NCBI GenBank assembly: GCA_022819945.1
Contig: JAJEGI010000015.1
Location: forward strand, 11,807 to 75,806
Direction of reading: 5' to 3'
DNA length: 64,000 nucleotides
From: Candidatus Poribacteria bacterium
GTDB lineage: Bacteria > Poribacteria > WGA-4E > WGA-3G
Below the pieces are notes generated by a model, which did not search any database, had not been told where the DNA came from, and worked only from the letters and a program-made list of their open reading frames with translations. Shown here piece after piece: positions 3,372 through 41,100 of the stretch. Made by a program: the position numbers and the translations under genes. Within the stretch, counting starts at the first letter, position 1, and each line of letters opens with the position of its first letter.

Positions 3372-3394
3372 ATTAAATCCTTCTCGCTATATTT

Positions 3395-4870: not shown

Positions 4871-4916
4871 ATCTTCCGTCTGTTTGTTGATTTCATCGAC
4901 GATGAACGCAAATACG

Positions 4917-5147: not shown

Positions 5148-5154
5148 AGTTGGG

Positions 5155-5577: not shown

Positions 5578-5779
5578 AAGACCAAAGTTCTGATATTAGA
5601 ATGAGTTATTGAGTTTACATCACTTTGACACACAACATCACTTTCCGATGTCACTCGGTTTGATGGTAGAGACCGCCCCAAGCGGAGCGGGTGACATTCT
5701 CTACCAAGTGATGTTCTGAATATTATACAATTTTTTGTATTTTTTGTCAATTTTTAAAATTTCTACAAGTCATAAACGA

Positions 5780-6442: not shown

Positions 6443-6564
6443 AGCGTCCTCCTTTTTAATGGAGATATACCTACTATTAAAATTGATTGAACACTCTAAT
6501 AGATAAAAAACTTGTCAAGTATGAGCACTGTTTGATTCTGGATGGCGCGGAAATTCAGTTATCT

Positions 6565-9810: not shown

Positions 9811-9812
9811 GT

Positions 9813-12476: not shown

Positions 12477-12706
12477 GCAGTATCCTTTTTGTGAAGGTTT
12501 GGTCGTTTTTTCGACTCCCCTATTCAAAACTATAGGTTTGTGACGTGGCAATACAACTGAGGATTTATAGCATATCAAAGATGTATGAAGATTTCAATGC
12601 AATTGTCGGAGAACGCATATAATGTTGCATCCTTGACGTGCGATAAATCGCACTACTACGAACCGATAAGCGCGTTATTCCAAGACTGTTTTTATCAAGG
12701 CCTGGT

Positions 12707-14716: not shown

Positions 14717-14774
14717 AGTAAAGTACGAAACCTCTTAAATTGATTGGTATTGTCTTGACACATCCTATATGATG

Positions 14775-23488: not shown

Positions 23489-24844
23489 ATGAAAACTGCG
23501 AAACTGATTACGATGGGATGTAAGGCGAACCAATACGATACGCAATCTATGCGTGAGACACTCCAGCGCAACGGATATACACTCGTTGACGAGGGAGTGT
23601 CGGGGCAGCAGGCAGACCTCTATCTCATCAATACATGCACCGTAACGAACGTCGCCGACCAGAAAGCACGTCAAGCGATTCGGAGAGCGATTCGACAGCA
23701 CCCGAACGCAAAAGTGCTTGTCACGGGCTGCTATGCTGAAAGCGACCGCGAGGCGATCGAAAAGATACCGGGTGTAACGTTCGTTTTCGGTAACCGAGAA
23801 AAGGCGGATTTTCAGGACTATTTGGACGTATTAAACGCCGAAACGCCATCACTTTCGGAAGAGGTGTTTCATTCGCCGAATCCGCTTCTTTCCATAGAAC
23901 CCGTACAACACGATGCTATCCGTGAGCACGCACGTTTTAGCAGAGGCGTTAGCGATGCTGGCAAACGTACCCGCGCGCTCATCAAGGTACAAGACGGTTG
24001 CAGTGCCTTCTGTACCTACTGTATTATCCCCTACGTCCGCGGTCGAATGACAAGTCGTCCGCTCGACGACATCGCCGATGAAGCACATCGTATCGCTGAC
24101 AGCGGTATCAAAGAGGTCGTCATCACTGGTGTGCATCTGGGTGCCTACGGTATGGATACCGGTAGAGACAAAGACATCGCCGACATTTTAGAGCACATCC
24201 ACGACATTGAAGGCATCGAACGGATCCGTTTCAGTTCGATTGAACCGATGTACTTTCCTGATGCGCTTGGTGAACGGATGGCGGCACTGCCGAAATGTAT
24301 GCCTCACTTTCATTTGCCACTCCAAGCCGGTTCGGATGCGGTGTTACGGCGGATGCGTCGGCGTTATACCACGTCACAATTTGCGCATCTCGTAGAGAAT
24401 TTACGACGCGTCTTCGGCGACGATGTTGGGATTACGACCGATATTATGGTAGGATTCCCCGGAGAAACGGATGCCCACTTTGAAGCATCGTGCCGATTCG
24501 TTGAAGAGATCGGTTTCAGTCAACTGCATGTATTCCGCTATTCTCCGCGTAAAGGCACCCCTGCAGCGACCTACCCGGATCCGGTGTCGCCACACATCTC
24601 TGCTGCCCGGAGCCAAGCAATGATCGCGCTCGGCGAACGTCTCAATACAGCGTTTCGACAACGGATGCTTGGGAAACAGAAAGAGGTTCTCATCGAAGCG
24701 AGCAGAGAAGGCGAAAATGACCACCTCGCCGGTTTCACGGACAATTACCTCCGCGTCCTCGTTGATGCGCCAGAGAGTGCGATCAATCAGATTCAGCGCG
24801 TCACTTTGGGTGCGTTAGAAGGGGATTGTATCGCTGCTGCCTAA
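23489..24844 (+). CDS. MiaB-like radical-SAM tRNA methylthiotransferase (MtaB-type)
   Basis: 451 aa; MTTase N-domain ('ITMGCKANQYDTQ', 'INTCTVT'), radical SAM 'CSAFCTYC', TRAM-like C-terminus. Confidence 0.8.
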   Translation: MKTAKLITMGCKANQYDTQSMRETLQRNGYTLVDEGVSGQQADLYLINTCTVTNVADQKARQAIRRAIRQHPNAKVLVTGCYAESDREAIEKIPGVTFVFGNREKADFQDYLDVLNAETPSLSEEVFHSPNPLLSIEPVQHDAIREHARFSRGVSDAGKRTRALIKVQDGCSAFCTYCIIPYVRGRMTSRPLDDIADEAHRIADSGIKEVVITGVHLGAYGMDTGRDKDIADILEHIHDIEGIERIRFSSIEPMYFPDALGERMAALPKCMPHFHLPLQAGSDAVLRRMRRRYTTSQFAHLVENLRRVFGDDVGITTDIMVGFPGETDAHFEASCRFVEEIGFSQLHVFRYSPRKGTPAATYPDPVSPHISAARSQAMIALGERLNTAFRQRMLGKQKEVLIEASREGENDHLAGFTDNYLRVLVDAPESAINQIQRVTLGALEGDCIAAA

Positions 24845-27534
24845 CCTTCAGATCCCTCCGCTTTTGCTTTCAGATCATAGAGAATATTTACCGCATCTAA
24901 GGGAGTCACCTGCGTGAGTTCCAAACGTCGGATTTCTTCGACGAGTGGGTGTGTCTTCGGTGTAAAGAGTGCCATCTGGAGCGAATCGCTTTGCATTGTT
25001 TTTCGAGAGACGCGGCGACGGGGTTTCGGCATTGTCGGGTGTGTTTTCGGTGGTTCTCCTGTCGCACCGTCCGCCTCAACGCTGAGATTGTGTTGTTCCA
25101 GTACCTCAAGTATCTGTTGTGCGCGTGTAATCACGGCTTGGGGTAACCCAGCGAGCCGTGCGACGTGGATGCCGTAACTCTGGTCTGCGCCGCCCGGAAC
25201 AACTTTTCGGAGGAATGTCACCTTTTGACCATCTTCATGAACAGCGACGTTGTAGTTCTTCGCGCGTTTATATTTACTGGCGAGTTCCACTAATTCGTGA
25301 TAGTGCGTGGCAAAGAGCGTTTTCGCACCCATCCGTTTCTCATCTAAGAGATACTCTGAAACCGCCCATGCGATACTGAGTCCATCAAATGTGCTGGTGC
25401 CGCGCCCGACTTCGTCAAAAATGACGAGACTGTTGCGTGTGGCGTTGTTGAGGATATTCGCCGTTTCGTTCATCTCGACGAGGAACGTACTCTGTCCCAT
25501 TACGAGGTTGTCTGAAGCACCGACGCGTGTGAAAATCCGATCCACTAATCCGATCTTTGCAGCGGAAGCAGGCACGAAACACCCAATCTGTGCCATTAAA
25601 ACGATGAGTGCCGTTTGACGGAGATAGGTGCTTTTACCGCTCATATTCGGTCCCGTGATGATATGTAATTGCTCGTCATCACAGTTGAGTAGCGTATCGT
25701 TGGGAACAAATCCCTCTTGCGTAAATAGCTGCTCAACGACCGGATGCCTGCCGTCCCGGATAACGATCTCGTCTACGGATGCGACAGTCGGTTTCACGTA
25801 GTTGTATTTCGATGCGATGTATGCAAAATTGGCGAGAACATCAATCATTGCGAGCGCGGCTGCGATTTTCTGGACGGTTTCCGTGAACTTCGATACTTCA
25901 TCGCGGATTTGGCAGAAAAGCTCGTATTCCAAGGTCTGGATCCGATCTTCGGCGTTCAGTACCTTCGCCTCTTGCTCCTTGAGTTCAGGTGTGATGAACC
26001 GTTCAGAATTCCGAAGCGTCTGTTTACGGATATAATCTTCGGGGACCATGTCGAGATTCGGTTTCGTCACGTCGATGTAGTAGCCGAAGACCTGATTGAA
26101 TCCGATCTTCAAGGATTGGATACCGCTGCGTTTGCGTTCCGCTGCTTCCATAGCGGCGATCCAGTCCTTTCCTTCTCCCACAATCTGCCGAAGTTCGTCG
26201 AGTTCCTCGTTATAGCCGTCACAGATTACACCCCCTTCGCGAATCGTTACAGGTGGGTTCGGATGGATACCGTTTTCAATTAGTTCGACTAACGCGGGTA
26301 GCGGATCTAAGGTCCCATCAAGGGATACCAACAGTGGACTGCTGCAGTTTTGGAGCTGCGCTTTGACATTGGGAATCAGGCACAATGAGTCCTTGAGCGA
26401 ATGCAGGTCGCGTCCGTTGACGGAACCGAGACTGATCCGCGAAATGAGTCGCTCAATATCGTACATCTGTCCGAGTGCCTCGCGAAGTTCCTCTTGTAGA
26501 CTAATCTGGGTTTTGAGTTCGTCAACCGCGCTAAGCCGCTGTTCAATTTCTTTTTCATCGAGCAAAGGTTGCAAGAGGCATTGGCGTATCCTTCTACCTC
26601 CCATTGATGTTACCGTCTGATCGAGGACTTCGAGGAGCGTGCCTTTTGTGGAACCGTCGCGAATGGAGGTTGTGAGTTCAAGGTTGCGCTGCGTATCGGC
26701 ATCCAGTACCATAAAATCCGAGAGCGTGTAGGTGTGCAGCGAGACGATGTGTTCGACTTCCTGTTTCTGGGTCTCGTTTAGGTAGTAGATGAGCGCGCCG
26801 GCAGCAGCGATTGCAGTGGGCAGGTGTTCGCACCCGAATCCGTCGAGTGAAATCGTTTGGAAATGCTGGAGGAGTTCCGTTCGAGCGGTGTCGAACTCAA
26901 ACCGCCAGTCGGGCAGATAATTGAGCGTCGCTTTGAGTTCGGTCTTGAGGCGGTCAGACATCTCCGCATCTTCAAAGGATTCGGAAAAGAGACACTCTTT
27001 TGGCGAAAAACGGTGTATCTCTGCCCAGAGGCGTGAAGGATCCGTGAGTTCGGTTACCAGAAACTCGCCTGTAGAGAGATCCGCCACAGCGACACCGTAG
27101 ACATCTTTGTTGGGATAAATGGAAATGAGGTAATTGTTCTGTTTATGCTCAAGCACTTTCGGGTCGGTCACGGTGCCGGGTGTAACGATCCGGACAACAT
27201 CGCGTTTGACGAGCCGGTTTTCATCGCGTGCGAGTTTCGCGTCCTCGGTCTGCTCCAGAATAGCGACTTTGTGTCCGGCTTTGACGAGTTTGTAGAGATA
27301 GGAATCGAGTGCGTGGTGTGGGATGCCTGCCATCGGTGGCGGTGGGGATTTCTGGTTTTTATGGCTTCTTGTTGTCAAGGCGATCTCAAGGAGGCGTGCG
27401 ATTAACTCGGCATCCTCAAAGAAGGCTTCATAGAAATCACCGACTCGGCACAGGAGAATAGCATCTTCGTGCTGTTTTTTAACCTGTTTGTAGAGTTCCA
27501 TCATCGACAGGTCTGACTGTTTTGAACGTGGCAT
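24841..27534 (-). CDS. mutS: DNA mismatch repair protein MutS
   Basis: 897 aa; 'MMELYKQVK', mismatch-binding 'GDFYEAFFEDA', Walker A 'ITGPNMSGKST', 'DEVGRGTSTFDGL'. Confidence 0.9.
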   Translation of the reverse strand: MPRSKQSDLSMMELYKQVKKQHEDAILLCRVGDFYEAFFEDAELIARLLEIALTTRSHKNQKSPPPPMAGIPHHALDSYLYKLVKAGHKVAILEQTEDAKLARDENRLVKRDVVRIVTPGTVTDPKVLEHKQNNYLISIYPNKDVYGVAVADLSTGEFLVTELTDPSRLWAEIHRFSPKECLFSESFEDAEMSDRLKTELKATLNYLPDWRFEFDTARTELLQHFQTISLDGFGCEHLPTAIAAAGALIYYLNETQKQEVEHIVSLHTYTLSDFMVLDADTQRNLELTTSIRDGSTKGTLLEVLDQTVTSMGGRRIRQCLLQPLLDEKEIEQRLSAVDELKTQISLQEELREALGQMYDIERLISRISLGSVNGRDLHSLKDSLCLIPNVKAQLQNCSSPLLVSLDGTLDPLPALVELIENGIHPNPPVTIREGGVICDGYNEELDELRQIVGEGKDWIAAMEAAERKRSGIQSLKIGFNQVFGYYIDVTKPNLDMVPEDYIRKQTLRNSERFITPELKEQEAKVLNAEDRIQTLEYELFCQIRDEVSKFTETVQKIAAALAMIDVLANFAYIASKYNYVKPTVASVDEIVIRDGRHPVVEQLFTQEGFVPNDTLLNCDDEQLHIITGPNMSGKSTYLRQTALIVLMAQIGCFVPASAAKIGLVDRIFTRVGASDNLVMGQSTFLVEMNETANILNNATRNSLVIFDEVGRGTSTFDGLSIAWAVSEYLLDEKRMGAKTLFATHYHELVELASKYKRAKNYNVAVHEDGQKVTFLRKVVPGGADQSYGIHVARLAGLPQAVITRAQQILEVLEQHNLSVEADGATGEPPKTHPTMPKPRRRVSRKTMQSDSLQMALFTPKTHPLVEEIRRLELTQVTPLDAVNILYDLKAKAEGSEG

Positions 27535-27702: not shown

Positions 27703-28077
27703 CTACATTTTCTTTATGTTTTCTGTATTGCGTACTGTCGTTTTTGACAACTTCTGCGTCACAAGTGCATAAAGGCTCATTCCGGATTTTGCCGCTTCGT
27801 CTGCCAAAGCGTGATAAAGTTTTGCATCAACAGAGATGTTGAATGGTCCCTGGTATCCGTTCCGTGAAGGTGCTTTTGGAATGGGTTCATCGTCTTCTTG
27901 ATAACACTCTTTCATCAACTCCCATGCTGTTTTTAATTCATTCAACGCCTCGGCAGGTGTCGGTCCGAAAGCCGAAACGTTAGGGAGTTCCACGAGATGC
28001 GCGAGATAATCACCGTCCTCATCAAAAAATACGTTCACCATGAAGCCATCAAAATCGTCGTGGTTATTCTTCTCCAT
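27703..28077 (-). CDS. hicB: HicB-family antitoxin (start placed at internal Met 28077; the ORF-track start 28155 would give a 92-nt overlap with hicA)
   Basis: HicB-like N-domain ('FDGFMVNVFFDEDGDYLAHLVELPNVSAFGPTPAEAL') and C-terminal DNA-binding tail. Confidence 0.6.
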   Translation of the reverse strand: MEKNNHDDFDGFMVNVFFDEDGDYLAHLVELPNVSAFGPTPAEALNELKTAWELMKECYQEDDEPIPKAPSRNGYQGPFNISVDAKLYHALADEAAKSGMSLYALVTQKLSKTTVRNTENIKKM

Positions 28078-28312
28078 CTGTTCTCTCCTGATTATATTGT
28101 TTAAGAAACTGTCGAACTTGGTATCCTTTCGCCATAGAGCGATCTGGTTGGACAATGAGCCTATATCCGTTAGGTGAATACCAAGCCCGATGGCTACCGC
28201 GTTGACGACGTTGTGTCCACCCGCATTGACGCATCAGGCGTTCAAACTCTCTAAATTGCAATCCATTTGGATTTCGCCTCGCTTTATCAAACAAGGTGTC
28301 TCGTCGGTTCAT
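28064..28312 (-). CDS. hicA: HicA-family mRNA interferase toxin
   Basis: 82 aa; YcfA/HicA-like 'GWTQRRQRGSHRAW...PNGYRLIVQP'. Confidence 0.7.
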   Translation of the reverse strand: MNRRDTLFDKARRNPNGLQFREFERLMRQCGWTQRRQRGSHRAWYSPNGYRLIVQPDRSMAKGYQVRQFLKQYNQERTDGEE

Positions 28313-28466: not shown

Positions 28467-29087
28467 TTACTGCATCGGTGAGAAAGGTGCGGGCAGCAAG
28501 AGTTTGCTTTCTTGTGTGATGGGTCTGACGGAACCTTTGGGGGGCCAGACACTCTTCTCTCGTGTCTCTGTCCGGATTCGGGCACGTTCTTCAAAACTCT
28601 TGTATGCCCATATATGGATGAAATTATTGATACCGCCGTATTCCGAGTACCAACAGCCTGCCAACGGTGAGAACTTCACGCGTTCGGGGATCGCCGCACC
28701 CCACGCCTCCAGCACTTGCGGCATGCCTTCTGCGGGATAGGTGTACAGACGCATTTCATAGAGCGGTCCGATGTCTTTTTCGCCTAAGGGTTCCATAAAG
28801 GGAGCTGGCAGATAAATCTCGGAGACCATTGATACGATGAGATCGCTTGTATCGGGGGGCCATACTGGATTGGGTTCGGCTTCTGCAGCGCGTCGGATTT
28901 CTGCCCGCTGTTCGAGGCTCTCGTAGGGCCAAATGGCGACCATTTGATTTAATGGTCCCACTTCGGTGTACCAATGTCCACCGAGTTTTGAGAGTGCTTG
29001 GCGAGCTGGTAACTTTTCGCCGAAGCGTTTCCAGTATTCTTGGAGTTGACCGAGTTTCAAGTTGTAGGTTCTTATCTCATGGATCAT
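28467..29087 (-). CDS. NIPSNAP-family protein (tandem NIPSNAP domains)
   Basis: 206 aa; two repeats of the NIPSNAP pattern ('MIHEIRTYNLK...' / 'LYEMRLYTY...'). Confidence 0.55.
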   Translation of the reverse strand: MIHEIRTYNLKLGQLQEYWKRFGEKLPARQALSKLGGHWYTEVGPLNQMVAIWPYESLEQRAEIRRAAEAEPNPVWPPDTSDLIVSMVSEIYLPAPFMEPLGEKDIGPLYEMRLYTYPAEGMPQVLEAWGAAIPERVKFSPLAGCWYSEYGGINNFIHIWAYKSFEERARIRTETREKSVWPPKGSVRPITQESKLLLPAPFSPMQ

Positions 29088-29112
29088 GCTATCTCTCCTG
29101 TGTTTTGAGGTG

Positions 29113-29616
29113 TTATTGATTTAGCATCAAACGAATATCGTTTTCACAGATGAACTCAACTGTGACACCATTTTGACGGAGTGCTTCGCGATAGGTCCAC
29201 CATGCACTATCTACCGCTTGCAGAATGGGAGGTTTTTCGGCGTGTGCAAGTGCCACAGCGATGAATTTTCTGTCATCCGGATCAAAATCTGCTAACGCTG
29301 GGTCTGTTGGGAACTCTTGAAAATCAGTTTCTGAATCATCAATAGGCATAATGGAAACCAAGTCGCATTGTTGCGGGTTTGCCCAATTTATCTCTACCCA
29401 CTTAAGGAATGCATCCCCTACACCCGGAAAACCGTCTGAATGCAACTTATTCCGGTATTCTCCGATAATTCGCCGCTGGTCATCTAACACTAATTTTACG
29501 TTACCTGCGGTAATCTGCATCAGTCTGTCAATACAAGTCTCTACGCAATCTTCAGAGGCTTGGTCTGCTTTTCCATTGGCAACTAACGGGACATTTGTAT
29601 CTACAATAACTTTCAT
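29113..29616 (-). CDS. PIN-like nuclease domain protein
   Basis: 167 aa; 'MKVIVDTNV' first acidic residue, further conserved acidic positions, 'DRKFIAVALA' near the C-terminus; 4-nt overlap with the upstream ATPase gene. Confidence 0.45.
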   Translation of the reverse strand: MKVIVDTNVPLVANGKADQASEDCVETCIDRLMQITAGNVKLVLDDQRRIIGEYRNKLHSDGFPGVGDAFLKWVEINWANPQQCDLVSIMPIDDSETDFQEFPTDPALADFDPDDRKFIAVALAHAEKPPILQAVDSAWWTYREALRQNGVTVEFICENDIRLMLNQ

Positions 29617-30884
29617 ACTTTGCTGGCTTTCTTACGTTTCATCTCCGCTTTAGTTTTTGCTGCCAAGTCGCCCATCTCATCGCCGAAGAAGTTTTGTGGC
29701 CAATTCGTGATGTTTCCGTAGTCATCTACATTGAGCCTCTCAATTTCAGAGACCCCCTCTTTTATTTCGCAAAAATAGAAGGCGGTGTCGTCTGCCGAAA
29801 TCTCTTCCTCAGCGATGCGCCGCATTAATCGTATCAGTAGATGCTCACTGTGGCTCTCAAGGATAATCTGTAACTGTCGCTCTTTTACGACTTCAATGAG
29901 CATATCCGCTAATTCTGACTGCACTTTGGGGTGGAGGTGTGCTTCAGGTTGTTCAAGGATGAGGATGCTTCCTTCAGGTACATAATAGCATAGAACTAAT
30001 ACCGGTAGGACCTGCGAAACGCCAAAACCAACATCGGTGAGTCGGACTTCGGGACCATCCTTGTATTTACGGACGAGGAATTCGTACGCCGTTTCCGAGC
30101 CAGAGATAGGATTGAGGCGATAGGAGTCAATCAAATCCAACCGCTGCAGCCATTTGGGGATTTGCTTTTCAGTAGGACGGAGTTGAATTCGTCCGGAAAA
30201 GAGCGCGGTGACCATATCTTCGCCATGCTGACCAACCCCTGCGGAATGCTTACCTTGCCATGTGTAATTCCGACGCGGATATTCACGGAGGGGCCCGAGA
30301 TAGCGGATGCTACGGAATAGGTTTTCAAAACGGGTTTGGAGTGGCGAGAAAAGTTCCCGAATACGAAGCGGGGCATCGTGAATCCCATAACACCGGAATG
30401 GAGGTTCAATATAATCCTCGTGTCTATGAGGAATAGAAACCGTACAAGGGGCACCTGGGCCAGCCCAACTGACATGGAAATTTCGTTCATTAACTGTATA
30501 ACCGAATCCCATTCCAGTAACCGAATTCTCCACGTTCCTGATGCTGAGATCAAAGGAGAGAACATCCACTTCATCCATATCCGATATGCTTAATTTTTCA
30601 GAAAATTTCCATGACACTGAGATTTGGAGCCAAGGATCCCGCCTGTGACCGTGGATAAGATCGTCAAAGCTCCCCAAGTTGACAAGGGAATTGTTATCAC
30701 CGAAATCAATTATCTCATTCCAATTAGGCGGACGCTCCACGGTCTGCTTTAGCATGAGTAGCGTTTGCAGGAGACTCGTTTTGCCAGAACTGTTCGCGCC
30801 GAAGAATCCGGTTAAGGGTGCTATCTGCAGCTTACTTGTATCTTTCCATGATTTGAAATTTTGCGCTCTGAGTTCGGTGATCAT
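29613..30884 (-). CDS. AAA_21/AAA_15-type ABC ATPase (OLD-like ATPase domain without Toprim)
   Basis: 423 aa; Walker A 'GANSSGKTSLLQTL', 'ILILEQPEAHLHPKVQ' signature. Confidence 0.7.
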   Translation of the reverse strand: MITELRAQNFKSWKDTSKLQIAPLTGFFGANSSGKTSLLQTLLMLKQTVERPPNWNEIIDFGDNNSLVNLGSFDDLIHGHRRDPWLQISVSWKFSEKLSISDMDEVDVLSFDLSIRNVENSVTGMGFGYTVNERNFHVSWAGPGAPCTVSIPHRHEDYIEPPFRCYGIHDAPLRIRELFSPLQTRFENLFRSIRYLGPLREYPRRNYTWQGKHSAGVGQHGEDMVTALFSGRIQLRPTEKQIPKWLQRLDLIDSYRLNPISGSETAYEFLVRKYKDGPEVRLTDVGFGVSQVLPVLVLCYYVPEGSILILEQPEAHLHPKVQSELADMLIEVVKERQLQIILESHSEHLLIRLMRRIAEEEISADDTAFYFCEIKEGVSEIERLNVDDYGNITNWPQNFFGDEMGDLAAKTKAEMKRKKASKV

Positions 30885-30932
30885 GATGTGTAACTGCCTC
30901 TTTAACAGAGAAAGATAGAAATAGTCTCAATT

Positions 30933-32195
30933 TTACGCTTTAGCCTTAGTTGCGAAGATTATACTGATTGTGAGTTCGTTACCGGCAGCGTCAGCGACTT
31001 TACCTTTGATAACGTAAATGGTATTGCCGCGAATTTCTTTGCCTTTGACTAGTTCAAGTATTCCTTTATTACCTTCAACTTTGCCAATCCAACCGGCATC
31101 AGCACCACCTTCGGTTTGAAGTTCAATGCTTCCCACCACTGCTTCGTTGAATACAATTTCAATGATACCTCTGTGGTTGATTGCTTCGGGATCAACGTCG
31201 CTATCAGCATCTTTAACAGTTCCACCAATAACTCTCGGAGTCACGGCATCTGGTGTAACGATTGCATAAGCAAGTGTTTGACTATCACCATCCCATTCAA
31301 CCGATAGCGAGAGAAATCCGAGAGGGAAAGGGCCTGCGATTGTCCGTGATGTGCCAGCACCGGAGACAGAGCCTACACTTACCGTTACATTGCCTGGGTC
31401 GCTATCAAAATGAATAACAATTGAAGCATTCGCGCTAAGTCTACTGCCACTTGGTGGGATTGCAAAAACAAATGCTACATTTCTTGTGCCAACGACTAAA
31501 CGAACCCCAACTTCAGGTTTGTCCTCTTTATCAGCAGCATCAAGGTTTTGGGCAACCAGCACTAAGTCTAAAATATTGACCTTCCCATCTTTGTTGACAT
31601 CTGCGCGCGGATTTGCTGGAATATCTTCTGCATTGAGGTTGCTTGCAACCAACGTCAAATCGAGGATATTCACTTTCCCATCCTCATTGACATCCCAATC
31701 TGTTGGCAATTCAGTTGCCACAATATGTCCATTTCTTGCTGTAACTGCTAACGGCATCGCCGCACTATCGGAAAGAATCACATCCATTAGTTTAATGGTA
31801 GAATCTTTCGCAGCAATCACCTCAAAAGTTAATGTGGCAAGTGTGCCTTCGCTAGCAGGGACAACTTCTGCTCCGGATGTTGCTGTCATATAAACGGTGT
31901 TTTCAGTGACTATCGGAGGTATCGTAAAAGCATCTGCAGGCAAATAATCTGCATTTCCCCCTTCAATATAGCGGAGTGCAATCGGATCAAAACCTACAGT
32001 CAATTCATACCCTGAAACATTTTTCGCACCTACAATTTGAATATTCAGGTGCATCTGCTCACCGACAGCAATTGATTCAGTCTGTGTCGATGACACATAA
32101 ACGAGAGCCTGTCCGTAACTTCCGACAGTAAAACCCAAAAACATGAAAACAGTTGTAATGGAAAAAAGCAGTTTCATCTCAGGTAATTTTCCCAA
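30933..32195 (-). CDS. secreted cohesin-domain + dockerin-repeat protein with C-terminal Ig-like domain
   Basis: 420 aa; signal peptide (an alternative start at MKLLFS, 32177, is more likely); cohesin-like block; dockerin calcium-binding repeats 'DVNEDGKVNILDL' and 'DVNKDGKVNILDL'. Confidence 0.6.
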   Translation of the reverse strand: MGKLPEMKLLFSITTVFMFLGFTVGSYGQALVYVSSTQTESIAVGEQMHLNIQIVGAKNVSGYELTVGFDPIALRYIEGGNADYLPADAFTIPPIVTENTVYMTATSGAEVVPASEGTLATLTFEVIAAKDSTIKLMDVILSDSAAMPLAVTARNGHIVATELPTDWDVNEDGKVNILDLTLVASNLNAEDIPANPRADVNKDGKVNILDLVLVAQNLDAADKEDKPEVGVRLVVGTRNVAFVFAIPPSGSRLSANASIVIHFDSDPGNVTVSVGSVSGAGTSRTIAGPFPLGFLSLSVEWDGDSQTLAYAIVTPDAVTPRVIGGTVKDADSDVDPEAINHRGIIEIVFNEAVVGSIELQTEGGADAGWIGKVEGNKGILELVKGKEIRGNTIYVIKGKVADAAGNELTISIIFATKAKA

Positions 32196-32199
32196 CAGT

Positions 32200-32700
32200 T
32201 TGTGTCTTTACAGATGCCGTCTCTACGGGACTAAAGAAGGTAGTGAGGCTGTATTTCTAAACATATCGCCCCTACGGGACTCAAAAAGAAAAATGAATTG
32301 AATTGTTGACCTCGTTTTCCATACAAATACTAAAGAAATATCCAAGGAAATAAATCTTACAGGACTCAATAGGTTTGTTGTGTGTGAAGTTTTCTTCTCC
32401 GTATATCCAGTCCGGTGCAATGTTTGGACTTACCATAGGTATCAATTTAGTGACTGTTTCATGGTATTTTGTAACACCGATATAAACATGCCGCCCCTAC
32501 GGGGCTTGGGTTTTTGCTTGAAAACGCTGCTATAAACATGCCATCCCTACGGGACTCAAGAAGGTTCTGAAGTATTCAAGTTTTCTGTATAAAACCCGGT
32601 TCGGTTAGGAAACCGAACCTACCGGACCTGGTGAACGAGGCGGTTATTTTTTCTCAAATTGACGCTTATGGTGCAATATTTGGACTTACATGTTGAGTTT
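32200..32700. repeat. two tandem copies of a ~250-bp intergenic repeated element (core 'CATGCC(G/A)(C/T)CCCTACGGGACTCAAGAAGG', hairpin GGTTCGGTTAGGAAACCGAACC, 'GGTGCAAT(G/A)TTTGGACTTAC')
   Basis: Direct comparison of 32200..32440 with 32470..32700 and with 33262..33410. Confidence 0.6.
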
Positions 32701-32735
32701 CACCTTTGCTCTGTTTTGTTAAGTTTGCTAAATCC

Positions 32736-33161
32736 TCACTTCAAGGTTCTTTTTTTACTTTCTACCTCTATAAGATGGCTAAGCTCATACGCATTCCAAA
32801 TTAATTTTTTATAATCACCAGTTTCTTTGGATTCTAACGCTGATTTAGCTTCCTCTAAACAGTCAACAACTTGTGGAAATAATTCTAACAGTTTCCCCGA
32901 ATTATCTGAATTAAGTGGCTTTACTAACTCTTTTATAGCTTCAATCGTTTCATTAATTTCTGCGATTTTGTCCGAACGCTCCGGCGAATCAATTGATTTG
33001 TCCAGTTCATAAACCGCTCTGCGAACTTTTTCAGATATTTCGATAACCAATGAATTCATAGTGATTCTTTCCTTTGACATGATAGCATCATATCGGACTT
33101 CTGTTAAGCTTAGCGAATAGATTTGTCTGAGCGCAACGCCACTTTTCTTCTCCAACTTCAA
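32736..33161 (-). CDS. hypothetical helical protein
   Basis: 141-aa ORF with a coiled-coil-like composition; preceded by a repeat element copy. Confidence 0.3.
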   Translation of the reverse strand: MKLEKKSGVALRQIYSLSLTEVRYDAIMSKERITMNSLVIEISEKVRRAVYELDKSIDSPERSDKIAEINETIEAIKELVKPLNSDNSGKLLELFPQVVDCLEEAKSALESKETGDYKKLIWNAYELSHLIEVESKKRTLK

Positions 33162-33261
33162 TGAAAAGTATATCCGCCCTGTTTACTTCATCTACCGTAT
33201 ACGCACCGAGATATAAAGTCGATAGGTGTCAATTTTGGAGTTTTTCGCCTTATTTCGTCGC

Positions 33262-33410
33262 AGCTCTTCTACAGATGCCGCCCTTACGGGACTTAGGTCT
33301 GTGAGGTCCCGTTTTTCTATACAGATACCATCCCTACGGGATTCAAGAGGTGTTTGAACGCTTCAAGGTTTCTGTGTAAAACTCGGTGCGGTTACAAACC
33401 GCATCTACCA
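33262..33410. repeat. third copy of the intergenic repeat element (contains hairpin CGGTGCGGTTACAAACCGCATC)
   Basis: Aligns with 32480..32630 over ~130 bp. Confidence 0.55.
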
Positions 33411-33664
33411 ATTGGAGGAAGAAAACAAGGTGTGGTTATAAACTACACCCATAGGGATTAGAGTTATGGCACACGGAGTGTGCCTATTACTTTTCACCTT
33501 GCTTGCGGATTTCGACCAACTCTTCCAGAATACGCCTGTGAAGACGATGTAATTCAAGCCCTATTCCGATGCCGATGGCAGCGAAAACTCCCACTCCGAG
33601 AATAATCTTTGTTTTTAAGGACATGTGCTATTCCTCTGTTGGATCTATGGTGAGGGTGTTTTCG

Positions 33665-34909
33665 CTAAAAGTTTTCGATGATCGCTGCGCCGAATTCGGA
33701 GGTGCGGACCTTTGTCGCGCCTTCCATGAGACGCTCCAGGTCGTAGGTGACCCGCTTTTGGAGGATGGTTTTCTCAAGTCCGTTGATAATCAGGTCAGCG
33801 GCTTCCTGCCAACCGATGTGTTCCAGCATCATCACCGCGGAGAGGATGAGTGAGCCTGGATTGACAACGTCTTGGTCGGTGTATTTTGGCGCGGTGCCGT
33901 GTGTCGCTTCAAAGAGGGCGACTTCGTCGCTGAGGTTACCACCGGGTGCCATGCCGATACCGCCCACTTGCGCTGCCGCTGCGTCGGAGAGATAGTCGCC
34001 GTTTAGGTTCGGCGTGACAAGGACATCGTACTCGTCAGTTCGCGTTAAGATCTGCTGGAGCATGCTGTCGGCGATTCGGTCATTAATGATAATCTTGCCT
34101 TCAGGGCACTTACCGTCATAATCGCTATAGAGTTCGTCTTCCGTAATGGTTTGCTCGGCGAATTCCTCTTTGGCGAGTTCATAGCCCCAGGCACTGAACG
34201 CGCCTTCGGTAAACTTCATGATGTTACCTTTATGGACAAAAGTGACACTACGTCTATCGTGGTCGATTGCGTACTGGATCGCCATGCGTGCTAAGCGTTT
34301 CGTGGCGAAAATGCTGATCGGTTTTATGCCGACACCCGAATCTTCGCGGATTTCTACACCCATTTCGGAGCGGAGGAGTTCAATAACCTTTTTCACTTCG
34401 GGGGTGCCTTGTTCCCATTCAATACCGGCGTAGACATCCTCAGTATTCTCACGGAAGATAACGACATCCATCTTTTCGGGATGTGTGACGGGGGCAGGTA
34501 CACCTTGGAAATAACGGACGGGACGGACACAAGCATAGAGTTCAAGTACTTGACGCAAGGTCACGTTTAAACTCCGAAACCCACCGCCGACAGGGGTCGT
34601 CAGGGGTCCCTTTAAAGCGACACGGAAGTATTCGATTGCATCGAAAGTATCTTGTGGCAGCCATTCGTTGTACTTTGCCATGGCGTTTTCGCCAGCGTAG
34701 ACATCAAACCAGACGATCCGTTTTTCGCCGTTGTAAGCCGTTTGGACAGCTGTATCAACGACGCGGCGCGCCACTTTCATGATGTCTCGTCCGATACCGT
34801 CCCCTTCAATGACGGGGATAATCGGTTCATTCGGTACGGTGAGTTGCCCGTCAACGAATCCTATTCTTTCACCCTCTTTTGGTACTGTTAATTGCTCAAA
34901 TTCAATCAC
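33665..34909 (-). CDS. icd: NADP-dependent isocitrate dehydrogenase (homodimeric Icd type)
   Basis: 414 aa; '[14 protein letters not shown]', 'SLNVTLRQ', 'HGTAPKY', '[13 protein letters not shown]' Icd signatures. Confidence 0.9.
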
Positions 34910-35121: not shown

Positions 35122-38100
35122 CTACTTCAAAATCACCATTTTCCGCAGGAATGAGAGATTATCCGCCTGCAATTGATAGAGGTAGATCCCACTGGCAACA
35201 CGTTCACCGACAGCATTTCTACCATCCCAATAGGCGGCGCGGCCCTTGCCGGTGTAGTAGCCTTCTCGTTGATGACCGAGATCGAGTTGGCGGACGACAG
35301 TGCCACGTGTATTATAAATCACGATACGTACATGTGCATCGGTCTCCAACTCATAGGGAATCCAAGTTTCAGGGTTGAACGGGTTCGGATAGTTGGCAAG
35401 GAGTTGCGTCTTCGCGGGACTGGCGGATGCGAGAAGGCGCCGGAGATACACCAGCGTCCGCAACGCCTCGGGTGACCGATCATTTGTTGCCTCCAGCAAC
35501 TCAATCTGCTCCCGGATGTTGTCTATCTGTACAGCGGTAAACTTCATGACAATACCTGAGGGTGCCCCAGCCGTCTCTTCAAAATTCGCAAAAATGAGTA
35601 GGAGGTCAAGGAAGTCTACACTGCCATCGGCGTTGAGATCGTATTGGAGGTTATTCGTCCCCAGTGCACCCGCGACCAAAACAGCGTCCACGTTGCCGAT
35701 CGTGCCGTCTCCGTCAACATCGTATTTGGATTGCGCAGCGGTTGTTGCGGGTGGTGTTGTCTCGGTTGCAGTTGCGCCACTGATTGCGATAGCCCCCGGT
35801 GCCATCAAGCCGGTGACAACATCTTGGATATTACTGCCATCCAAGTTAGCACGCTGGATGCCGTTCCGATCGGTCCAATAGACTTTACGCCCCGCAGCAT
35901 CGATAGCGATATCTTGGGGCGAATCCAATTTGACGATGAAGTTCCCCTCGAAGTTAGACCCGTCAACGTTGAACCGCTGTACGTTACCACGAGAGTTCGT
36001 CACATACAACTTGCCTTTTGACGCATCAACCGTGATACCGTAGGGCACGTTGTTTAGCTCCCGAACCGACTCAACGTTTGAACCATCCAGATCGGCACGA
36101 CGAACGCTGCCGGTATGCTTACCCGTCTGCTCGGTCCAATAGACTTTACCGTCCGCAGCATCGACAGCGATCCCTCCGGGAGATTCCAAATTGACGACAA
36201 CATTAGGTTGGAACTTCTCGCCATTCAGATCCATCCGCTGCACTTTACCCCAAGCGTTGGTTAGATACAACTTGTTATTTGACGTATCAAGTGCGATCCC
36301 ACGGGGGACGCTTGTCAGTTCTTTAACTAATTGGACGTTTGTGCCGTTGAGGTTCGCCCGCCGGATACGCCCTGTTCTATTGCTGGTCTGTTCTGTCCAG
36401 TAGACTTTGCCACCGTAGACATCGACGGCGATCCCCGTGATATTTTGGGCAGTTGGTGCGATGCCTTCAACTTCCGTTGCTGTGAGACGTTGGAGCGCGC
36501 CAGCCTGTGAATACCAATATATCGGTGGTCGCAGGGGTGCAGCAATTAACACTTCAGCTGGCGCAGCACTCAAGACGAGACTAACGGGCGACCGTAAACC
36601 TGTGACAACATCTTCGATATTACAGCTATCCAAATCAGCGCGTCGGATGCTGCTCCGCTCGGTCCAATAAACGCTCTTCGCAGCGACATCAACGGCGATG
36701 CCCTGTGGCGAATTCAGGTTGACGATCAGGTCGGGTTGGAAGCTTGTCCCGTCAAGGTTCATACGTTGCACTTTACCCTGATCGTTGGTTAGATACAACT
36801 TGCCTTTTGAAGTATCGAGGGCAATACTGCGGGGGACACCCGTTAGTTTCCTAATCAATTGGACGTTTGTGCCGTTGAGGTTCGCCCGCCGGATACGCCC
36901 CCTTTTATTGCTCGTCCGCTCTGTCCAGTAGACTTTACCGCCCGCAGCATCGACAGCGACACCCCTTGGCGCGTCCAAGTCGACGATAAGATCAGGTTGG
37001 AAGCCTGTCCCGTCAAGGTTCATCCGCTGCATTTTACCGTCAGCGTTGGTTAGATACAACTTGTTACTTGACGTATCAAGTGCGATCCCACGGGGGACGC
37101 TTGTCAGTTCTTTAACTAACTGGACGTTTGTGCCGTTGAGGTTCGCCCGCCGGATACGCCCCCTTTTATTGCTCGTCCGCTCCGTCCAGTAGACGTTGCC
37201 AGCACGGGCATCAACGGCGATATCAATGATATTTTGGGCAGTTGGTGCGATGCCTTCAACTTCCGTTGCTGTGAGACGTTGGAGCGCGCCAGCCTGTGAA
37301 CGCCAATATATGGGTGGTCGCAGGGGTGCAGCAATTAACACCTCAACTGCCGGAGGGCTCAAGACGAGACTGACGGGCGACCCTAAACCTGTCGCGACAT
37401 TCTGGATGTTTGTGCCGTTGGGGTTCGCCCGCCGGATACGATCTCCTTCTGTCCAGTAGACTTTACCGTCCGCAGCATCAACAGCGACACTCATTGGCGC
37501 ATTGGAATTAACAATGAAGTTGGGTTCAAAGTCGGTTCCGTTGACGTTGAGTCGTTGCACTTTACCCATAGAACTTGCCAAGTAGAGTTTATGCGTATGC
37601 GTATCAATAGCAAGCCCGTGGACGACATTTTGTAGTTCTATAACCAACTGGACGTTTGTGCCGTTGAGGTTTGCCCGCCGGATACGCCCCGAATTATCAC
37701 CGGTCTGTTCCGTCCAGTAGACTTTACCCCGTGCAGCATCGACAGCGACACCCCTTGGCGCGTCCAAGTTGACGATAAGATCAGGTTGGAAACCTGTCCC
37801 GTCAAGGTTCATCCGTTGCACTTTACCGTCAGCGTTGGTTAGATACAACTTGTTATTTGACGTATCAATGGCAAGCCCGCGGGGGGCACTTGTCAGTTCT
37901 TTAACTAATTGGATGTTTGTGCCGTTGAGGTTTGCCCGCTGGATACGTCCCGAACCATCACCCATCTGCTCTGTCCAGTAGATTTTACCATTAACTCTAT
38001 CCACAGCGACACTGGTTGCATTCTGGATGTCTGGTGCCAAGCGGTTTATATCGGTACCTGTCAGACTCTGGATCGCGCCGACATTGGCATCTACCCAATA

Positions 38101-41100
38101 CATTGGTGGTACCTGGGGTTCATCAGTGCCGGTGTCAGTCAGCGTGAAAATTTCACAGACATCGACTGCCCCCGTTCCGCCAATGCTCCGGGTCGTCGAG
38201 GTGCCCTCTGTGAAGACAGGTTCATCATCAGAATCAGGCGGCGTTGGCGGCGTTGGATCTGTTACCGTTTCATCTACATCTGTTTCATCTGAATCCGTTT
38301 CATCTGCATCTGTTTCATCTACATCCGTGATGTTGATGGTGACAGTAATACTCGCTGAAGCGCCGTTGCCATCGTAAGCCGTCACAGCTACGGAATAACT
38401 GCTTTTCGTCTCATAGTCCAAGGAGGCAGCCGTCCGCAGTTGAGCATTACTGCTGTCAATACCAAATGCTGCTGCATCGGTGCCACCGAGACTATAAGTT
38501 ATCGTATCCCCATCAGGGTCCGTCGCAGGGACAAGATCGCCTATATTGTTGCCGGATGGCGTGTTTTCCGCAACGCTCCGAGTCGTTGAGGCACCCTCTG
38601 TGAAGACAGGCGCGCCATTAGAAGCAGGCGGCGGGGCCGGCGGATCGGTTCCCGATTCATCCACATCCGTGATGTTGATGGTGACAGTAATACTCGCTGA
38701 AGCATCGGTGCCATCGTAAGCCGCCACAGCCACGGAATAACTGTTTTTCGTCTCATAGTCCAGGGAGGCAGAAGTCCGCAACTGACCGGTACTGCTGTCA
38801 ATACCAAATGCTGCTGCATCGGTGCCGCCGAGCGCATAAGTTATCGTATCATCATCAGGGTCCGTCGCAGAGACAGGATCGCCTATATTGTTGCCGGAAG
38901 CCGTGTTTTCGGCAATGCTCCGGCTCGTTGAGGTGCCATCTGTGAAGACAGGCGCGCCATTAGAGCCGGGTGGCGGTTGCGGCGGATTGCTTCCCGATTC
39001 ATCTACATCTGTGACGTTAATCGTGACAGTAATACTGTCTGAACCGCCGTTGCTATCGGAAACCGTCACAGCCACGGAATAACTGATTTTCGTCTCATAG
39101 TCGAGGGCAGCAGAAGTCCGCAACTGACCCGTGCTGGAAACGATCCGGAATGAGGCGGCATCCGTTCCACTCAGCCTATAAGTCAGTGTATCCCCATCAG
39201 GGTCTGTTGCGGAGACGCGAGACCCTATATTGCTGCCGGATGCCGTGTTTTCGGCAATGCTTCGACTCGTTGAGGTGCCCCCTGAAAATACAGGCGATTC
39301 ATTGACATCCGTGACGTTGATTGTGACAGTAATACTCGTTGAAGCACTGTTGCTATCGGTAGCCGTCACCTCCACGGTGTAACTATTTTTTCTTTCATAA
39401 TTGAGGGAAGCAGAAGTCTGGAGCTGACCGCTACTGCTGGTAATACCAAATGCTCCTGAATCCGTTCCACCAAGGCTATAAGTTATGGTATGACCCTCAT
39501 CGTCTGTTGCGGCGAAAGGGGTGCCTATATTGCTGCCGGCTGCGGTGTTTTCGGCAATGCTCAGGGTCGTCGAGGTGCCGTCTGAAAATACAGGCGCGTC
39601 ATTGGCATCCGTAACGTTGATTGTCACATCAATGTTAGCTGAAGCACCGTTGGGATCGATAGCAGCCACCTGCACGGCGTAACTATTTTTTGTTTCATAG
39701 TCGAGGGGTGCAGAAGTCTGGAGCTGACCGGTACTGCTGTCAATACCAAACAGTGCTGCGTCCGTCCCAAGGAGACTATATATTATCGTCTCATTATCAG
39801 CGTCTGTTGCGGCGACAGGCGTGCCTATATTGCTGCCGGCTGCGGTGTTCTCGGCAATGCTCCGGCTCGTCGAGGTCCCATCTGTGAAGACAGGCGATTG
39901 ATTCGTATTACCTCCCACACCATCCTTAATATTGATGGTAACAGAGATCGTATCTGTTAAATTAGTTGGATCGGTAGCAGTTACTGTGACATTCACAGAA
40001 GTTCTGTCGGGTGGAATATAGGAGACTCGCAACTGACCTGTGCTGCTAACCATTCCGAGCAGGATACTATCAGCACCGCTCATGATGTATGTTAGCGTAT
40101 GACCATCAGCGTCTGTTGCGGAAATAGGATCGCCTATAGCGTGGTTCCACGTGTCCGCTTCGCTTCTTAAAAGGCTCCGGACGGCTGATGTGCCCTCCGT
40201 AAAGACAGGCGGATTGTTGCCAGTGCCAGACTCCTCAACATCTGTGACATTGATCGTGACAGTGATTAGGTCTGTCCTGTCGGTGCGATCGGAAACACTC
40301 ACGAAAACTGTATAACTATTGGGTTGCGTTTCATAATCCATCGGTATCTTCGTTTTGAGTTGCCCGTTATTATCAATCCCAAATACCGTTGAAAGTGTGG
40401 CACGCCAAGGATTATTCGGATCATCCGGATCCGGCGCATCCACCCTGTACCTCAGTTCGTCCCCCTCAGGAAGATCAGGATCTGTTGCGGTTAGGGGAGC
40501 CCCTATATTCGTGCCTACGGGTTGATTTTCTGCGACACTCCGCGTAGCAGTGTCGCCCTCCGTGAACGTTGGGGGATTTTCGCCACCATCCAGGACATTG
40601 ATCGTGACAGTAATACTCGCTGAAGCGGCTTTACTGACATTGTCATACGCACTTACTGTAACGCTATAACTATTTTTCGTTTCATAATCTAATGCTGCCT
40701 CTGTTTTCAACTGACCGGTAGCAACATCAAGCGCAAAGGACGATGCATCCGTGCCAGTTAGGGCATATCTGAGCGTATCACCATTAGGATCTGTAGCCCC
40801 GACAGCAGAGCCAATATTAGTGCCGGCGAAACTATTTTCTACAATACTACGCGTCGTCGAATCCCCATCCGAAAATACAGGTGGAGTATTAAGTGGAATA
40901 CTTCCACGTGTGTATATGCTACAGGCACGCGAAAGATTAGTCCTGGGTACCTTGGCAGTTATGACATTCTCACCAACAATGGGTATTGCAATAACTTTCA
41001 TATAAGCAGTGGCTTTACCATCAGTACCTGTAGTTACATCAATAGTGGCTGTGTAGGTGCCATTCCTTGTAGCACTCACCTGTGTGTTGTTGGCGTTACC

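Follow-up and report, generated by a model that had tools for sequence, protein, structure and literature searches.

The window, by which we mean the whole 64,000-nucleotide stretch of Candidatus Poribacteria DNA that was analysed, very probably carries a chromosomal HEC-03-type anti-phage defence system composed of an ATPase of the OLD/NsnB kind and a coupled PIN-like nuclease. Judged by sequence, the cassette belongs to HEC-03, a system that has already been described and tested, as a distant member from a sponge symbiont, and is not new; the main use of the finding is annotation, the window pair being one further instance of a catalogued defence system. The first-pass annotation had proposed a two-gene cassette in which genes for a 423-aa ATPase and a 167-aa protein overlap by 4 nt, and both open reading frames are found as described, on the minus strand, with the following features:

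29613..30884, minus: HEC-03-type ABC ATPase gene, 423 aa (ORF, Pfam, PADLOC, BLASTP)
30774..30800, minus: Walker A/P-loop, aa 29-37, GANSSGKTS (alignment)
30315..30614, minus: hypervariable Insert region, aa ~91-190, proposed phage-sensing surface (column identity)
30012..30035, minus: ABC signature-like motif, aa 284-291, DVGFGVSQ (alignment)
29928..29966, minus: Walker B block, aa 307-319, ILILEQPEAHLHP (alignment)
29847..29858, minus: H-loop, aa 343-346, ESHS (E343, H345 and S346 invariant)
29661..29801, minus: C-terminal DUF3696 tail, aa 362-408, proposed PIN docking element (Pfam, 8e-13)
29613-29616, minus: ATGA stop/start overlap, 4 nt, gtATGAaa (read from the sequence)
29113..29616, minus: PIN-like nuclease gene, 167 aa, proposed effector (PADLOC, BLASTP, AF2, Foldseek, alignment)
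29599-29601, minus: candidate catalytic D6 (conservation)
29482-29484, minus: candidate catalytic D45 (conservation)
29458-29460, minus: candidate catalytic E53 (conservation)
29272-29274, minus: candidate catalytic D115 (conservation)
29209-29211, minus: candidate catalytic D136 (conservation)
29100..33493, no strand: segment variable relative to the empty icd-NIPSNAP site (orf141, cohesin/dockerin gene, ATPase gene, PIN gene)

Both reading frames are real and not chance frames because each matches an identical database protein (977 and 380 bits) and their homologues number in the thousands; RefSeq names the ATPase a "DUF3696 domain-containing protein" and the PIN partner a "hypothetical protein". 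The ATGA overlap indicates probable translational coupling of the two genes. Co-conservation of the pair, a check that could have spoken against the cassette, is complete: the ATPase and PIN genes are adjacent in 80/80 related loci from Poribacteria, Planctomycetota, Chloroflexota and Gemmatimonadota, and in every one of them the ATPase stop and the PIN start are no more than a few bases apart. The cassette is carried by dozens of Poribacteria species, often at more than one locus; multiple loci occur within several genomes, and additional ATPase copies within some loci.

The ATPase and its PIN-like partner

By its Pfam matches (AAA_15, 3e-26; AAA_21, 7e-24; DUF3696, 8e-13) and its motifs, the larger protein is an OLD/AAA_15/AAA_21-type ABC ATPase that has no nuclease domain. 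A Toprim domain was sought in both cassette proteins with Pfam and PADLOC and none was found, which bears out the earlier description of a Toprim-free ATPase; the C-terminus is DUF3696 instead. The motif EQPEAHLHP is likewise present (aa 311-319), whereas the Walker A motif had been misread as GxxGxGKT: the residues are G29-A-N-S-S-G-K-T, i.e. GxxxxGKT, and G29, G34 and K35 are invariant in 88/89 aligned ATPases (the one exception has a gap there). In the same alignment G286 and Q291 of the signature-like motif are invariant (89/89) and G288 is kept in 88/89, while in Walker B E311 is found in 89/89 and Q312 in 87/89. The Walker B block aligns to VIIEEPEMYLHP of Thermus OLD (6P74), which places Gln312 at the position of the second Walker B Glu of OLD.

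The Insert region departs from this conservation, with column identities of 0.24-0.53 vs 0.8-0.9 in the ATPase cores. Even in relatives occupying the same locus the Insert is only 0.32-0.58 identical to that of the window ATPase despite a C-core identity of 0.93-0.97, and between tandem ATPase paralogues Insert identity falls to 18-32%. The AF2 model of the ATPase, built on a 35-sequence alignment of 77-100% identity, is poor (pLDDT 52, pTM 0.47). Similarity to solved structures is limited to the nucleotide-binding motifs, with no structure of a close relative in the PDB, and all NCBIfam matches of the ATPase lie far below threshold; the small protein matches no NCBIfam model.

The designation of the downstream protein as PIN-like holds. 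AF2 models the 167 residues with confidence (pLDDT 94.9, pTM 0.90) in the topology b-a-a-b-a-a-b-a-b-a-b, i.e. as a Rossmann-like alpha/beta/alpha fold around a central parallel sheet of PIN topology, and the top Foldseek matches in the PDB are HARP/PRORP RNase P, PAE0151, the SMG6 PIN domain and a Mycobacterium tuberculosis VapC, all of them weak (best E 0.015, TM 0.4-0.58). Pfam PIN_3 stays below its cutoff of 27 bits (14.9 bits, E 0.05); it is the sole recurrent Pfam match in the family, being found in 30/119 representatives at E <=0.1 (best 1.7e-4). PIN nucleases have four conserved acidic active-site residues, D-E-D-D, according to PMC12065111. In the window protein D6 lies at the end of b1, D45 and E53 in b2 and the following helix, D115 at a helix N-terminus and D136 after b4, and these five residues are kept in 97-100% of 138 diverse representatives (36-60% identity). 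The model and the conservation thus support the prediction that the 167-aa protein is a PIN-like nuclease whose acidic active-site residues are all in place, its PIN scores being weak. An insertion of ~25 residues occupies aa 88-112.

Searches of PDB sequences with the 167-aa protein alone and with a 119-sequence family profile found no PIN protein, and the PDB sequence matches obtained (DDB1, a de novo TIM barrel, NAA40) were dismissed as spurious. Against viral structures Foldseek gave weak matches throughout, a few of them PIN-like; no homologue of the PIN protein was detected in cultured phage genomes and no family in PHROGs. An apparent ATPase-PIN fusion of 479 aa (P0334) was not counted as a Rosetta-stone case, its linker and N-terminus having the look of a frameshifted translation.

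Relation to HEC-03 and to other ATPase-nuclease systems

PADLOC assigns both proteins to HEC-03. The ATPase matches the HEC-03B model PDLC04148 at E 1.8e-119 (398 bits), the best of 134 matches, followed by NsnB (220 bits, 1.4e-65, aa 1-407), and the sole match of the PIN protein is the HEC-03A model PDLC04147 (E 5.8e-34, aa 1-159 on positions 1-153 of the 159-position profile). The models are those of PADLOC-DB v2. BLASTP against the experimentally tested pair WP_025259138.1 and WP_025259137.1 of Pseudomonas cichorii ATCC 10857 gives 38% identity over 396 aa for the ATPase (E 4e-82) and 32% over 154 aa for the PIN protein (E 1e-25). HEC-03 stands for Hma-embedded candidate 03; according to the preprint, the P. 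cichorii pair guards Escherichia coli against phages with both genes being needed, and the system is toxic upon induction (Payne et al., bioRxiv 10.1101/2024.01.29.577857). The idea of an ATPase acting with a separate nuclease in defence was right. The PIN partner is indeed a variant on this theme; its novelty was overestimated because an ATPase + PIN variant had already been catalogued and validated as HEC-03.

The two systems share the ATPase-then-PIN order, co-oriented and overlapping genes (by 14 nt in P. cichorii, 4 nt in the window), the DUF3696 tail, a Glu-Gln Walker B (MEQPEIHLHP in P. cichorii) and the conserved PIN residues. They differ in host (Gammaproteobacteria vs Poribacteria) and in sequence, identity being only 38% and 32%; the P. 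cichorii ATPase has ~461 aa vs 423 aa in the window, where the Insert region is shorter, the first acidic PIN residue is Glu there and Asp here, and the window copy lies outside Hma. As to nomenclature, the ATPase is "HEC-03B" in PADLOC-DB and "HEC-03A" in Payne et al.

Among other systems with related components is Menshen (NsnABC), reportedly described by Millman et al. in 2022. The window ATPase resembles NsnB from end to end, DUF3696 included, the catalytic Glu of Walker B is replaced in both (EN in NsnB, EQ in the window), and in both systems the partner protein starts with a PIN-fold domain. According to the Menshen paper, the PIN-like domain of NsnC is predicted to be gripped by two NsnB DUF3696 tails, and NsnC itself consists of an inactive PIN N-domain lacking the acidic residues (inPIN) and a C-terminal toxin (PMC12065111). 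In contrast, the window encodes a bare, single-domain PIN protein of 167 aa that has the acidic residues and would itself be the effector. No gene for NsnA (ParB-DUF262) is present in the window, no DUF262-like neighbour recurs across the 80 loci, and PADLOC reports no NsnC match for the 167-aa protein.

PARIS, OLD and Septu share with the window ATPase the OLD-type ABC ATPase clade (AriA, 4e-28; Thermus OLD 6P74, E 4e-12; PtuA, ~3e-5), and PtuA also has a Gln following the Walker B acid (LIDQIELHLHP). In PARIS (AriA/AriB), in Septu and retron I-A (PtuA/PtuB) and in Gabija/OLD a nuclease is likewise under ATPase control; the nuclease is a Toprim in PARIS, as the partner AriB, and in OLD and GajA, where it is fused, and the HNH protein PtuB in Septu, vs a PIN protein here. 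The similarity to AriA is confined to the ATPase, and neither Pfam nor PADLOC finds an HNH match in the PIN-like partner. Like VapBC, the cassette encodes a small, probably toxic PIN protein that resembles VapC, its N-terminus carrying a DTN motif and its acidic set being of the D-E-D-D style. It differs in that a large ABC ATPase takes the upstream place of a VapB-type antitoxin and in that the PIN protein, with its insertion, falls below the Pfam PIN thresholds; the neighbours of the PIN gene are the ABC ATPase and a NIPSNAP gene, with no VapB-type DNA-binding antitoxin. Membership in Menshen, PARIS, Septu, OLD/Gabija and VapBC was rejected because in each case a defining component is absent.

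Genomic setting and alternative explanations

The gene upstream of the ATPase encodes a cohesin/dockerin protein, the NIPSNAP gene (28467..29087) lies downstream of the PIN gene, and the cassette is tightly packed among housekeeping genes on the same strand. Homology to the related contig L082 stops at ~33494 and restarts at ~29099; in this contig and in a second one (L083), both otherwise syntenic, the icd-NIPSNAP site is empty and the cassette boundaries are clean, and relatives without the cohesin insert carry the two-gene cassette alone at this site. The first-pass annotation had placed the pair in an islet next to HicAB. HicA/HicB (27703..28312) are indeed nearby; NIPSNAP separates them from the PIN gene and, by comparison of these contigs, the ATPase-PIN cassette forms a clean indel by itself, and HicAB varies independently as an insert beyond NIPSNAP. 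An Hma system lies ~11 kb away with housekeeping genes between, and the window copy is not inside any defence system. A scan for promoters and terminators around the cassette gave sites no more numerous than in shuffled sequence.

The setting raises the question whether the pair is a housekeeping RNA-processing pair kept at the icd-mutS locus and playing no role in phage conflict. The cassette occupies the same position between icd and NIPSNAP/MutS in ~22 Poribacteria species, a fixed housekeeping locus where mobile defence genes would less typically sit. This counts against the defence reading, as does the location outside defence systems, and the tight packing with same-strand genes would fit a housekeeping pair. 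Against a housekeeping role, related contigs of equal flank similarity have an empty site, and sequence change in the cassette is much faster than in the flanking genes (identities of 68-82% for the ATPase and 60-90% for the PIN protein vs 90-99% for icd, NIPSNAP and MutS), the Insert being hypervariable. Moreover, genomes with several loci and loci with extra ATPase copies do not fit such a role, other copies adjoin type I RM genes (36/80 loci, on both sides in 20) or reside on 12 plasmids, most of which are conjugative or mobilizable, and on 3 viral contigs of IMG/VR, and the P. cichorii homologue is a validated defence system. We therefore regard a housekeeping pair as highly improbable, and we give just as little credence to a degenerate Menshen system persisting, after loss of the NsnA sensor, as a perhaps non-working NsnB-NsnC remnant. 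The full-length NsnB match with DUF3696 and the PIN-like start of NsnC would fit such a remnant, but the HEC-03 model scores far above NsnB, neither the window nor the 80 loci offer an NsnA candidate, and the small protein, which lacks a C-terminal effector domain, retains the very acidic residues that are missing from inPIN. A two-gene form that is kept across phyla and, in the case of P. cichorii, functions in E. coli does not look like decay.

A plain toxin-antitoxin (addiction) module, in which a VapC-like PIN toxin is held by an ATPase that merely acts as antitoxin and stabilises the locus, is unlikely, if less so than the two preceding explanations. It would account for the resemblance to VapC-type toxins, the TA-like translational coupling, the toxicity of P. 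cichorii HEC-03 on induction, the nearby HicAB pair and the occurrence on plasmids. Yet the tested homologue confers phage protection that depends on both genes, no VapB resembles an ABC ATPase of 423 aa that carries a hypervariable Insert, and the frequent embedding in type I RM loci together with tandem, sensor-like paralogues points to immunity. TA-like control is in any case compatible with defence, and the two are not mutually exclusive.

A proposed model for PIN control by the DUF3696 tail

For the HEC-03-type defence system that we favour, we suggest the following scheme: (i) ATPase oligomers would grip the PIN protein by means of their DUF3696 tails and hold it inactive, by analogy with NsnB-NsnC, (ii) the variable Insert would sense a phage-derived cue, (iii) a nucleotide-dependent rearrangement would free or activate the PIN protein, and (iv) the activated PIN protein would cut RNA and thereby stop the infected cell or the phage, the docking, the cue, the RNA target and the abortive outcome all being conjectural. 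Because the catalytic Glu is replaced by a conserved Gln, ATP binding may matter more than fast hydrolysis for PIN activation.

Variation in the DUF3696 tail tracks that in the PIN partner (Spearman 0.84; partial r 0.65 when core identity is controlled for) vs a partial r of about 0 for the other ATPase regions. This covariation, together with the clamp predicted for NsnB-NsnC, is the basis on which the tail is proposed as docking element for the PIN protein; part of it could reflect linkage, as the tail is encoded beside the PIN gene.

The NsnB-like ATPase with DUF3696, the tail-PIN covariation, the hypervariable Insert and the Gln in place of the catalytic Glu go beyond the published description of HEC-03. 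As mechanistic leads for HEC-03 they point to DUF3696 as a possible dock for the PIN protein, to the Insert as the region that may set specificity and to the Walker B Glu-Gln as a putative, naturally hydrolysis-impaired site, and the Poribacteria clade, which is distant and well sampled, is usable for comparative work. The findings also suggest that HEC-03 and Menshen are connected in evolution, a link that is absent from the passages searched in the HEC-03 preprint and the Menshen paper. In a bolder version, which we put forward tentatively and consider somewhat more apt to fail than to hold, HEC-03 would be a minimal two-gene core of the Menshen lineage with a DUF3696-docked active PIN protein, with the Insert as a built-in sensor that replaces NsnA and with sensor arrays in Poribacteria. 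The arrays in question consist of 2-3 divergent ATPase paralogues before one PIN gene and lie within type I RM operons.

Assignment of the gene pair to HEC-03

The two-gene cassette proposed in the first-pass annotation is present in the window: both minus-strand ORFs were found at the coordinates claimed, with the ATPase stop and the small-protein start overlapping (gtATGAaa), and they are tightly packed with their neighbours, all on the same strand:

33665..34909, minus, icd
32736..33161, minus, 141-aa ORF
30933..32195, minus, cohesin/dockerin protein gene
29613..30884, minus, ATPase gene (423 aa)
29113..29616, minus, small protein gene (167 aa)
28467..29087, minus, NIPSNAP
28064..28312, minus, HicA
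27703..28155, minus, HicB-like
24841..27534, minus, MutS

In PADLOC-DB, HEC-03 is the best match of the ATPase (PDLC04148, E 1.8e-119), followed by NsnB of the Menshen system (1.4e-65), PDC-M55A (4e-59) and AriA (4e-28), and it is the only match of the small protein (PDLC04147, E 5.8e-34). HEC-03 is described by Payne et al. as one "Hma-embedded candidate" composed of an ABC ATPase and a VapC-like PIN protein; in the E. coli experiments presented there, at least two phages formed plaques orders of magnitude less efficiently in its presence, defence needed both genes and induction was toxic (bioRxiv 10.1101/2024.01.29.577857). Compared directly with the tested pair, which originates from Pseudomonas cichorii ATCC 10857, the ATPase shares 38% identity (E 4e-82) and the small protein 32% (E 1e-25); the two pairs agree in gene order, and in both the genes overlap. 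Because all sequence and synteny criteria point to this system, the cassette is, on those grounds, a member of HEC-03, and specifically a new, distant member of a kind already known. The earlier reading of the pair as a variant on the ATPase-plus-nuclease theme is supported as an interpretation, but the variant is not new, having already been catalogued and validated as HEC-03. Component names are swapped between sources: in the preprint's text the ATPase is HEC-03A and the PIN protein HEC-03B, and the reverse holds in PADLOC-DB, where model HEC-03A (PDLC04147) is a 159-position PIN and HEC-03B (PDLC04148) a 458-position ATPase.

We regard the logic of an ATPase controlling a nuclease as common to the cassette and to all of Menshen, PARIS, OLD, Gabija, Septu and VapBC. 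Menshen was rejected for the cassette, which has neither NsnA nor an NsnC-type effector fusion, as were PARIS, OLD and Gabija for want of a Toprim, Septu for want of an HNH and VapBC for want of a VapB.

The two proteins and clues to mechanism

Sequence evidence alone argues weakly for a PIN identity of the small protein: its Pfam PIN_3 match reaches 14.9 bits where the cutoff is 27, no NCBIfam model matched and sequence searches of the PDB returned nothing meaningful. PIN_3 is the sole Pfam family matched repeatedly across diverse family representatives (30 of 119). The AlphaFold2 model, built with 32 homologues, is confident (pLDDT 94.9, pTM 0.90) and follows the expected PIN order, b1-a-a-b2-a-a-b3-(insert 88-112)-a-b4-a-b5. 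When the model was compared with the PDB by Foldseek, every one of the top matches was a PIN-like nuclease (HARP/PRORP RNase P, PAE0151, SMG6 and M. tuberculosis VapC), with modest scores (E 0.015 or higher, TM 0.4-0.58). D6, within a VapC-like "DTN" motif, D45, E53, D115 and D136 are 97-100% conserved among 138 representatives of 36-60% identity, and these acidic residues occupy the D-E-D-D positions expected of PIN RNases as set out in the Menshen work (PMC12065111). The model, the structural matches, the recurrent PIN_3 matches and the acidic set together support the PIN-nuclease reading, and we conclude that the small protein is a divergent PIN protein, probably catalytically competent.

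The Walker A motif of the ATPase is GANSSGKTS (aa 29-37) and conforms to GxxxxGKT, not to GxxGxGKT as first annotated. This motif, the signature-like motif DVGFGVSQ (aa 284-291), Walker B (ILILEQPEAHLHP, aa 307-319) and the H-loop (ESHS, aa 343-346) are virtually invariant across the 89 relatives in the alignment. The Pfam search detected AAA_15, AAA_21 and a C-terminal DUF3696 and, as had been claimed, no Toprim. No solved structure of a close relative was found in the PDB, where the best match is confined to the nucleotide-binding motifs. Gln312 stands where Thermus OLD has its second Walker B glutamate ("ILEQPE" versus "IIEEPE"); at this position NsnB has EN, according to the Menshen paper (PMC12065111), and retron PtuA has DQ. 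The glutamine is kept in 87 of the 89 relatives and is also found in the tested HEC-03 ATPase. E-to-Q mutants of ABC proteins offer an analogy for ATP binding with slow hydrolysis, and by this analogy the conserved Gln312 suggests an ATP-binding switch that would hydrolyse slowly.

The ATPase is NsnB-like over its entire length, DUF3696 included, and in the AlphaFold 3 models presented for Menshen two NsnB DUF3696 tails are predicted to clamp the inactive NsnC PIN domain (PMC12065111). Over 84 pairs, pairwise PIN identity correlates far more closely with identity of the DUF3696 tail (Spearman 0.84) than with identity in the other regions compared: 0.67 for N-core and C-core alike, 0.60 for the middle and 0.47 for the Insert (aa ~91-190). 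Once core identity is controlled for, DUF3696 retains a partial correlation of 0.65, and the values for Insert and middle are ~0. Among same-locus relatives, those whose PIN is divergent (0.61-0.67) also have a divergent tail (0.74-0.84), and their C-core is conserved (0.93-0.95). Such covariation is consistent with a docking interface; part of it may also stem from linkage, since the tail-coding sequence adjoins the PIN gene.

The Insert is hypervariable even in close relatives (identity 0.32-0.58), and tandem ATPase paralogues differ mainly there (18-32% identity versus 74-85% in the cores), as would be expected of a target-recognition surface. Two to three such paralogues precede a single PIN gene inside a type I RM operon in several Poribacteria genomes (locus L032, 2021-6489; also L043, L049, L060, L064 and L022); in L022 the numbers are four ATPase copies to two PIN genes. 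These arrays suggest several sensors feeding one common effector. On a plausible reading, HEC-03 would be the Menshen lineage's minimal core, in which the PIN is active, DUF3696 would act in docking and the arrays in Poribacteria would be multi-sensor.

Co-conservation, contexts and turnover

The PIN family comprises 1,223 representatives at 50% identity. In 80 genome loci, all fetched by PIN homology, an ATPase homologue lies directly upstream of the PIN gene on the same strand in 80 of 80, which bears out the co-conservation of the pair. Most loci are from Poribacteria and the remainder from Planctomycetota, Chloroflexota and Gemmatimonadota, and their contexts form three groups: (A) the window's lineage (~22 species), with the order icd - (± 141-aa ORF and cohesin gene) - ATPase - PIN - NIPSNAP - (± HicAB) - MutS; (B) 36 of the 80 loci, where type I RM genes neighbour the pair in the co-oriented order hsdM - ATPase (x1-3) - PIN - ... 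- hsdS - hsdR, with RM genes on both sides in 20 of the 36; and (C) other phyla, with no neighbours in common. Embedding of the kind seen in group B is the pattern described as leading to the discovery of HEC-03 (bioRxiv 10.1101/2024.01.29.577857).

The family is unusually expanded in Poribacteria, several chromosomes carrying at least two separate ATPase-PIN loci (OZ242036.1, L026 and L040; OZ241983.1, L029 and L044; OZ244821.1, L010 and L070; CBDBMC010000001.1, L035 and L052). One database protein, P0334 (479 aa), looks like a PIN domain fused to the C-terminal half of an ATPase of the HEC-03 type; it is probably a frameshift or gene-calling artefact rather than a true fusion, because its linker and N-terminus resemble out-of-frame translation.

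Within group A, flanking proteins are 90-99% identical to those of the window, whereas identity is 68-82% for the ATPase and 60-90% for the PIN protein, and thus the cassette either evolves or is swapped far more rapidly than the DNA around it. Because all 80 loci had been chosen via PIN, metagenomes were searched with NIPSNAP. Two metagenome contigs (L082 and L083; icd 93% and NIPSNAP 91% identical) have no cassette and an icd-NIPSNAP spacing of ~360 bp; homology to occupied loci ends ~25 bp before the ATPase start and restarts ~11 bp after the PIN stop. With such sharp-edged empty sites, the two-gene unit is a clean case of presence/absence polymorphism. Twelve plasmids, 10 of which are conjugative or mobilizable, carry homologous pairs whose genes are annotated there as "DUF3696 domain-containing protein" and "hypothetical protein"; pairs are also found on three IMG/VR contigs and are absent from cultured phage genomes.

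Other elements at the locus vary as well. The cohesin/dockerin protein (420 aa) and the 141-aa ORF form a lower-GC insert (0.39-0.45; window 30933-33161) between icd and the ATPase that is present in some relatives (L006, L010, L015 and L062) and missing from most, and it is therefore a second independently variable element. The HicA/HicB-like pair (27703-28312, between NIPSNAP and MutS) is also variable: no HicAB-like gene was found from NIPSNAP to MutS in L001, L008 and L046, and in other relatives the copy is divergent or displaced. Directly upstream of icd lies a very large ORF of 2,056 aa (35122-41292, minus strand).

Other defence genes in the window

The Hma defence system, in which HEC-03 is described as first found embedded (bioRxiv 10.1101/2024.01.29.577857), is present in complete form at 621-18125 on the minus strand:

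14775-18125, minus, HmaA helicase (E 2.9e-206)
9813-12578, minus, HmaB DUF1156 methylase
6565-9141, minus, HmaC DUF499 ATPase
621-3371, minus, second HmaB-like methylase

The HEC-03-like pair lies outside it, ~11 kb away, past PhyH genes, MutS and others. Between hmaA and hmaB is a 669-aa OLD/GajA-like AAA_15/AAA_21 ATPase (12707-14716, minus strand; PADLOC matches to Old, 1e-16, and GajA, 3e-15). Since the GajA match extends to aa 665, this protein probably carries a C-terminal Toprim; as an ABC-ATPase defence gene it would be the second in the window. Between HmaC and the second HmaB-like methylase sits an IS1595-family transposase (3948-4823, plus strand; DDE_Tnp_IS1595, 1e-36), which adjoins a 220-aa Laminin_G_3 protein (5780-6442) and could have interrupted or duplicated a portion of the Hma locus.
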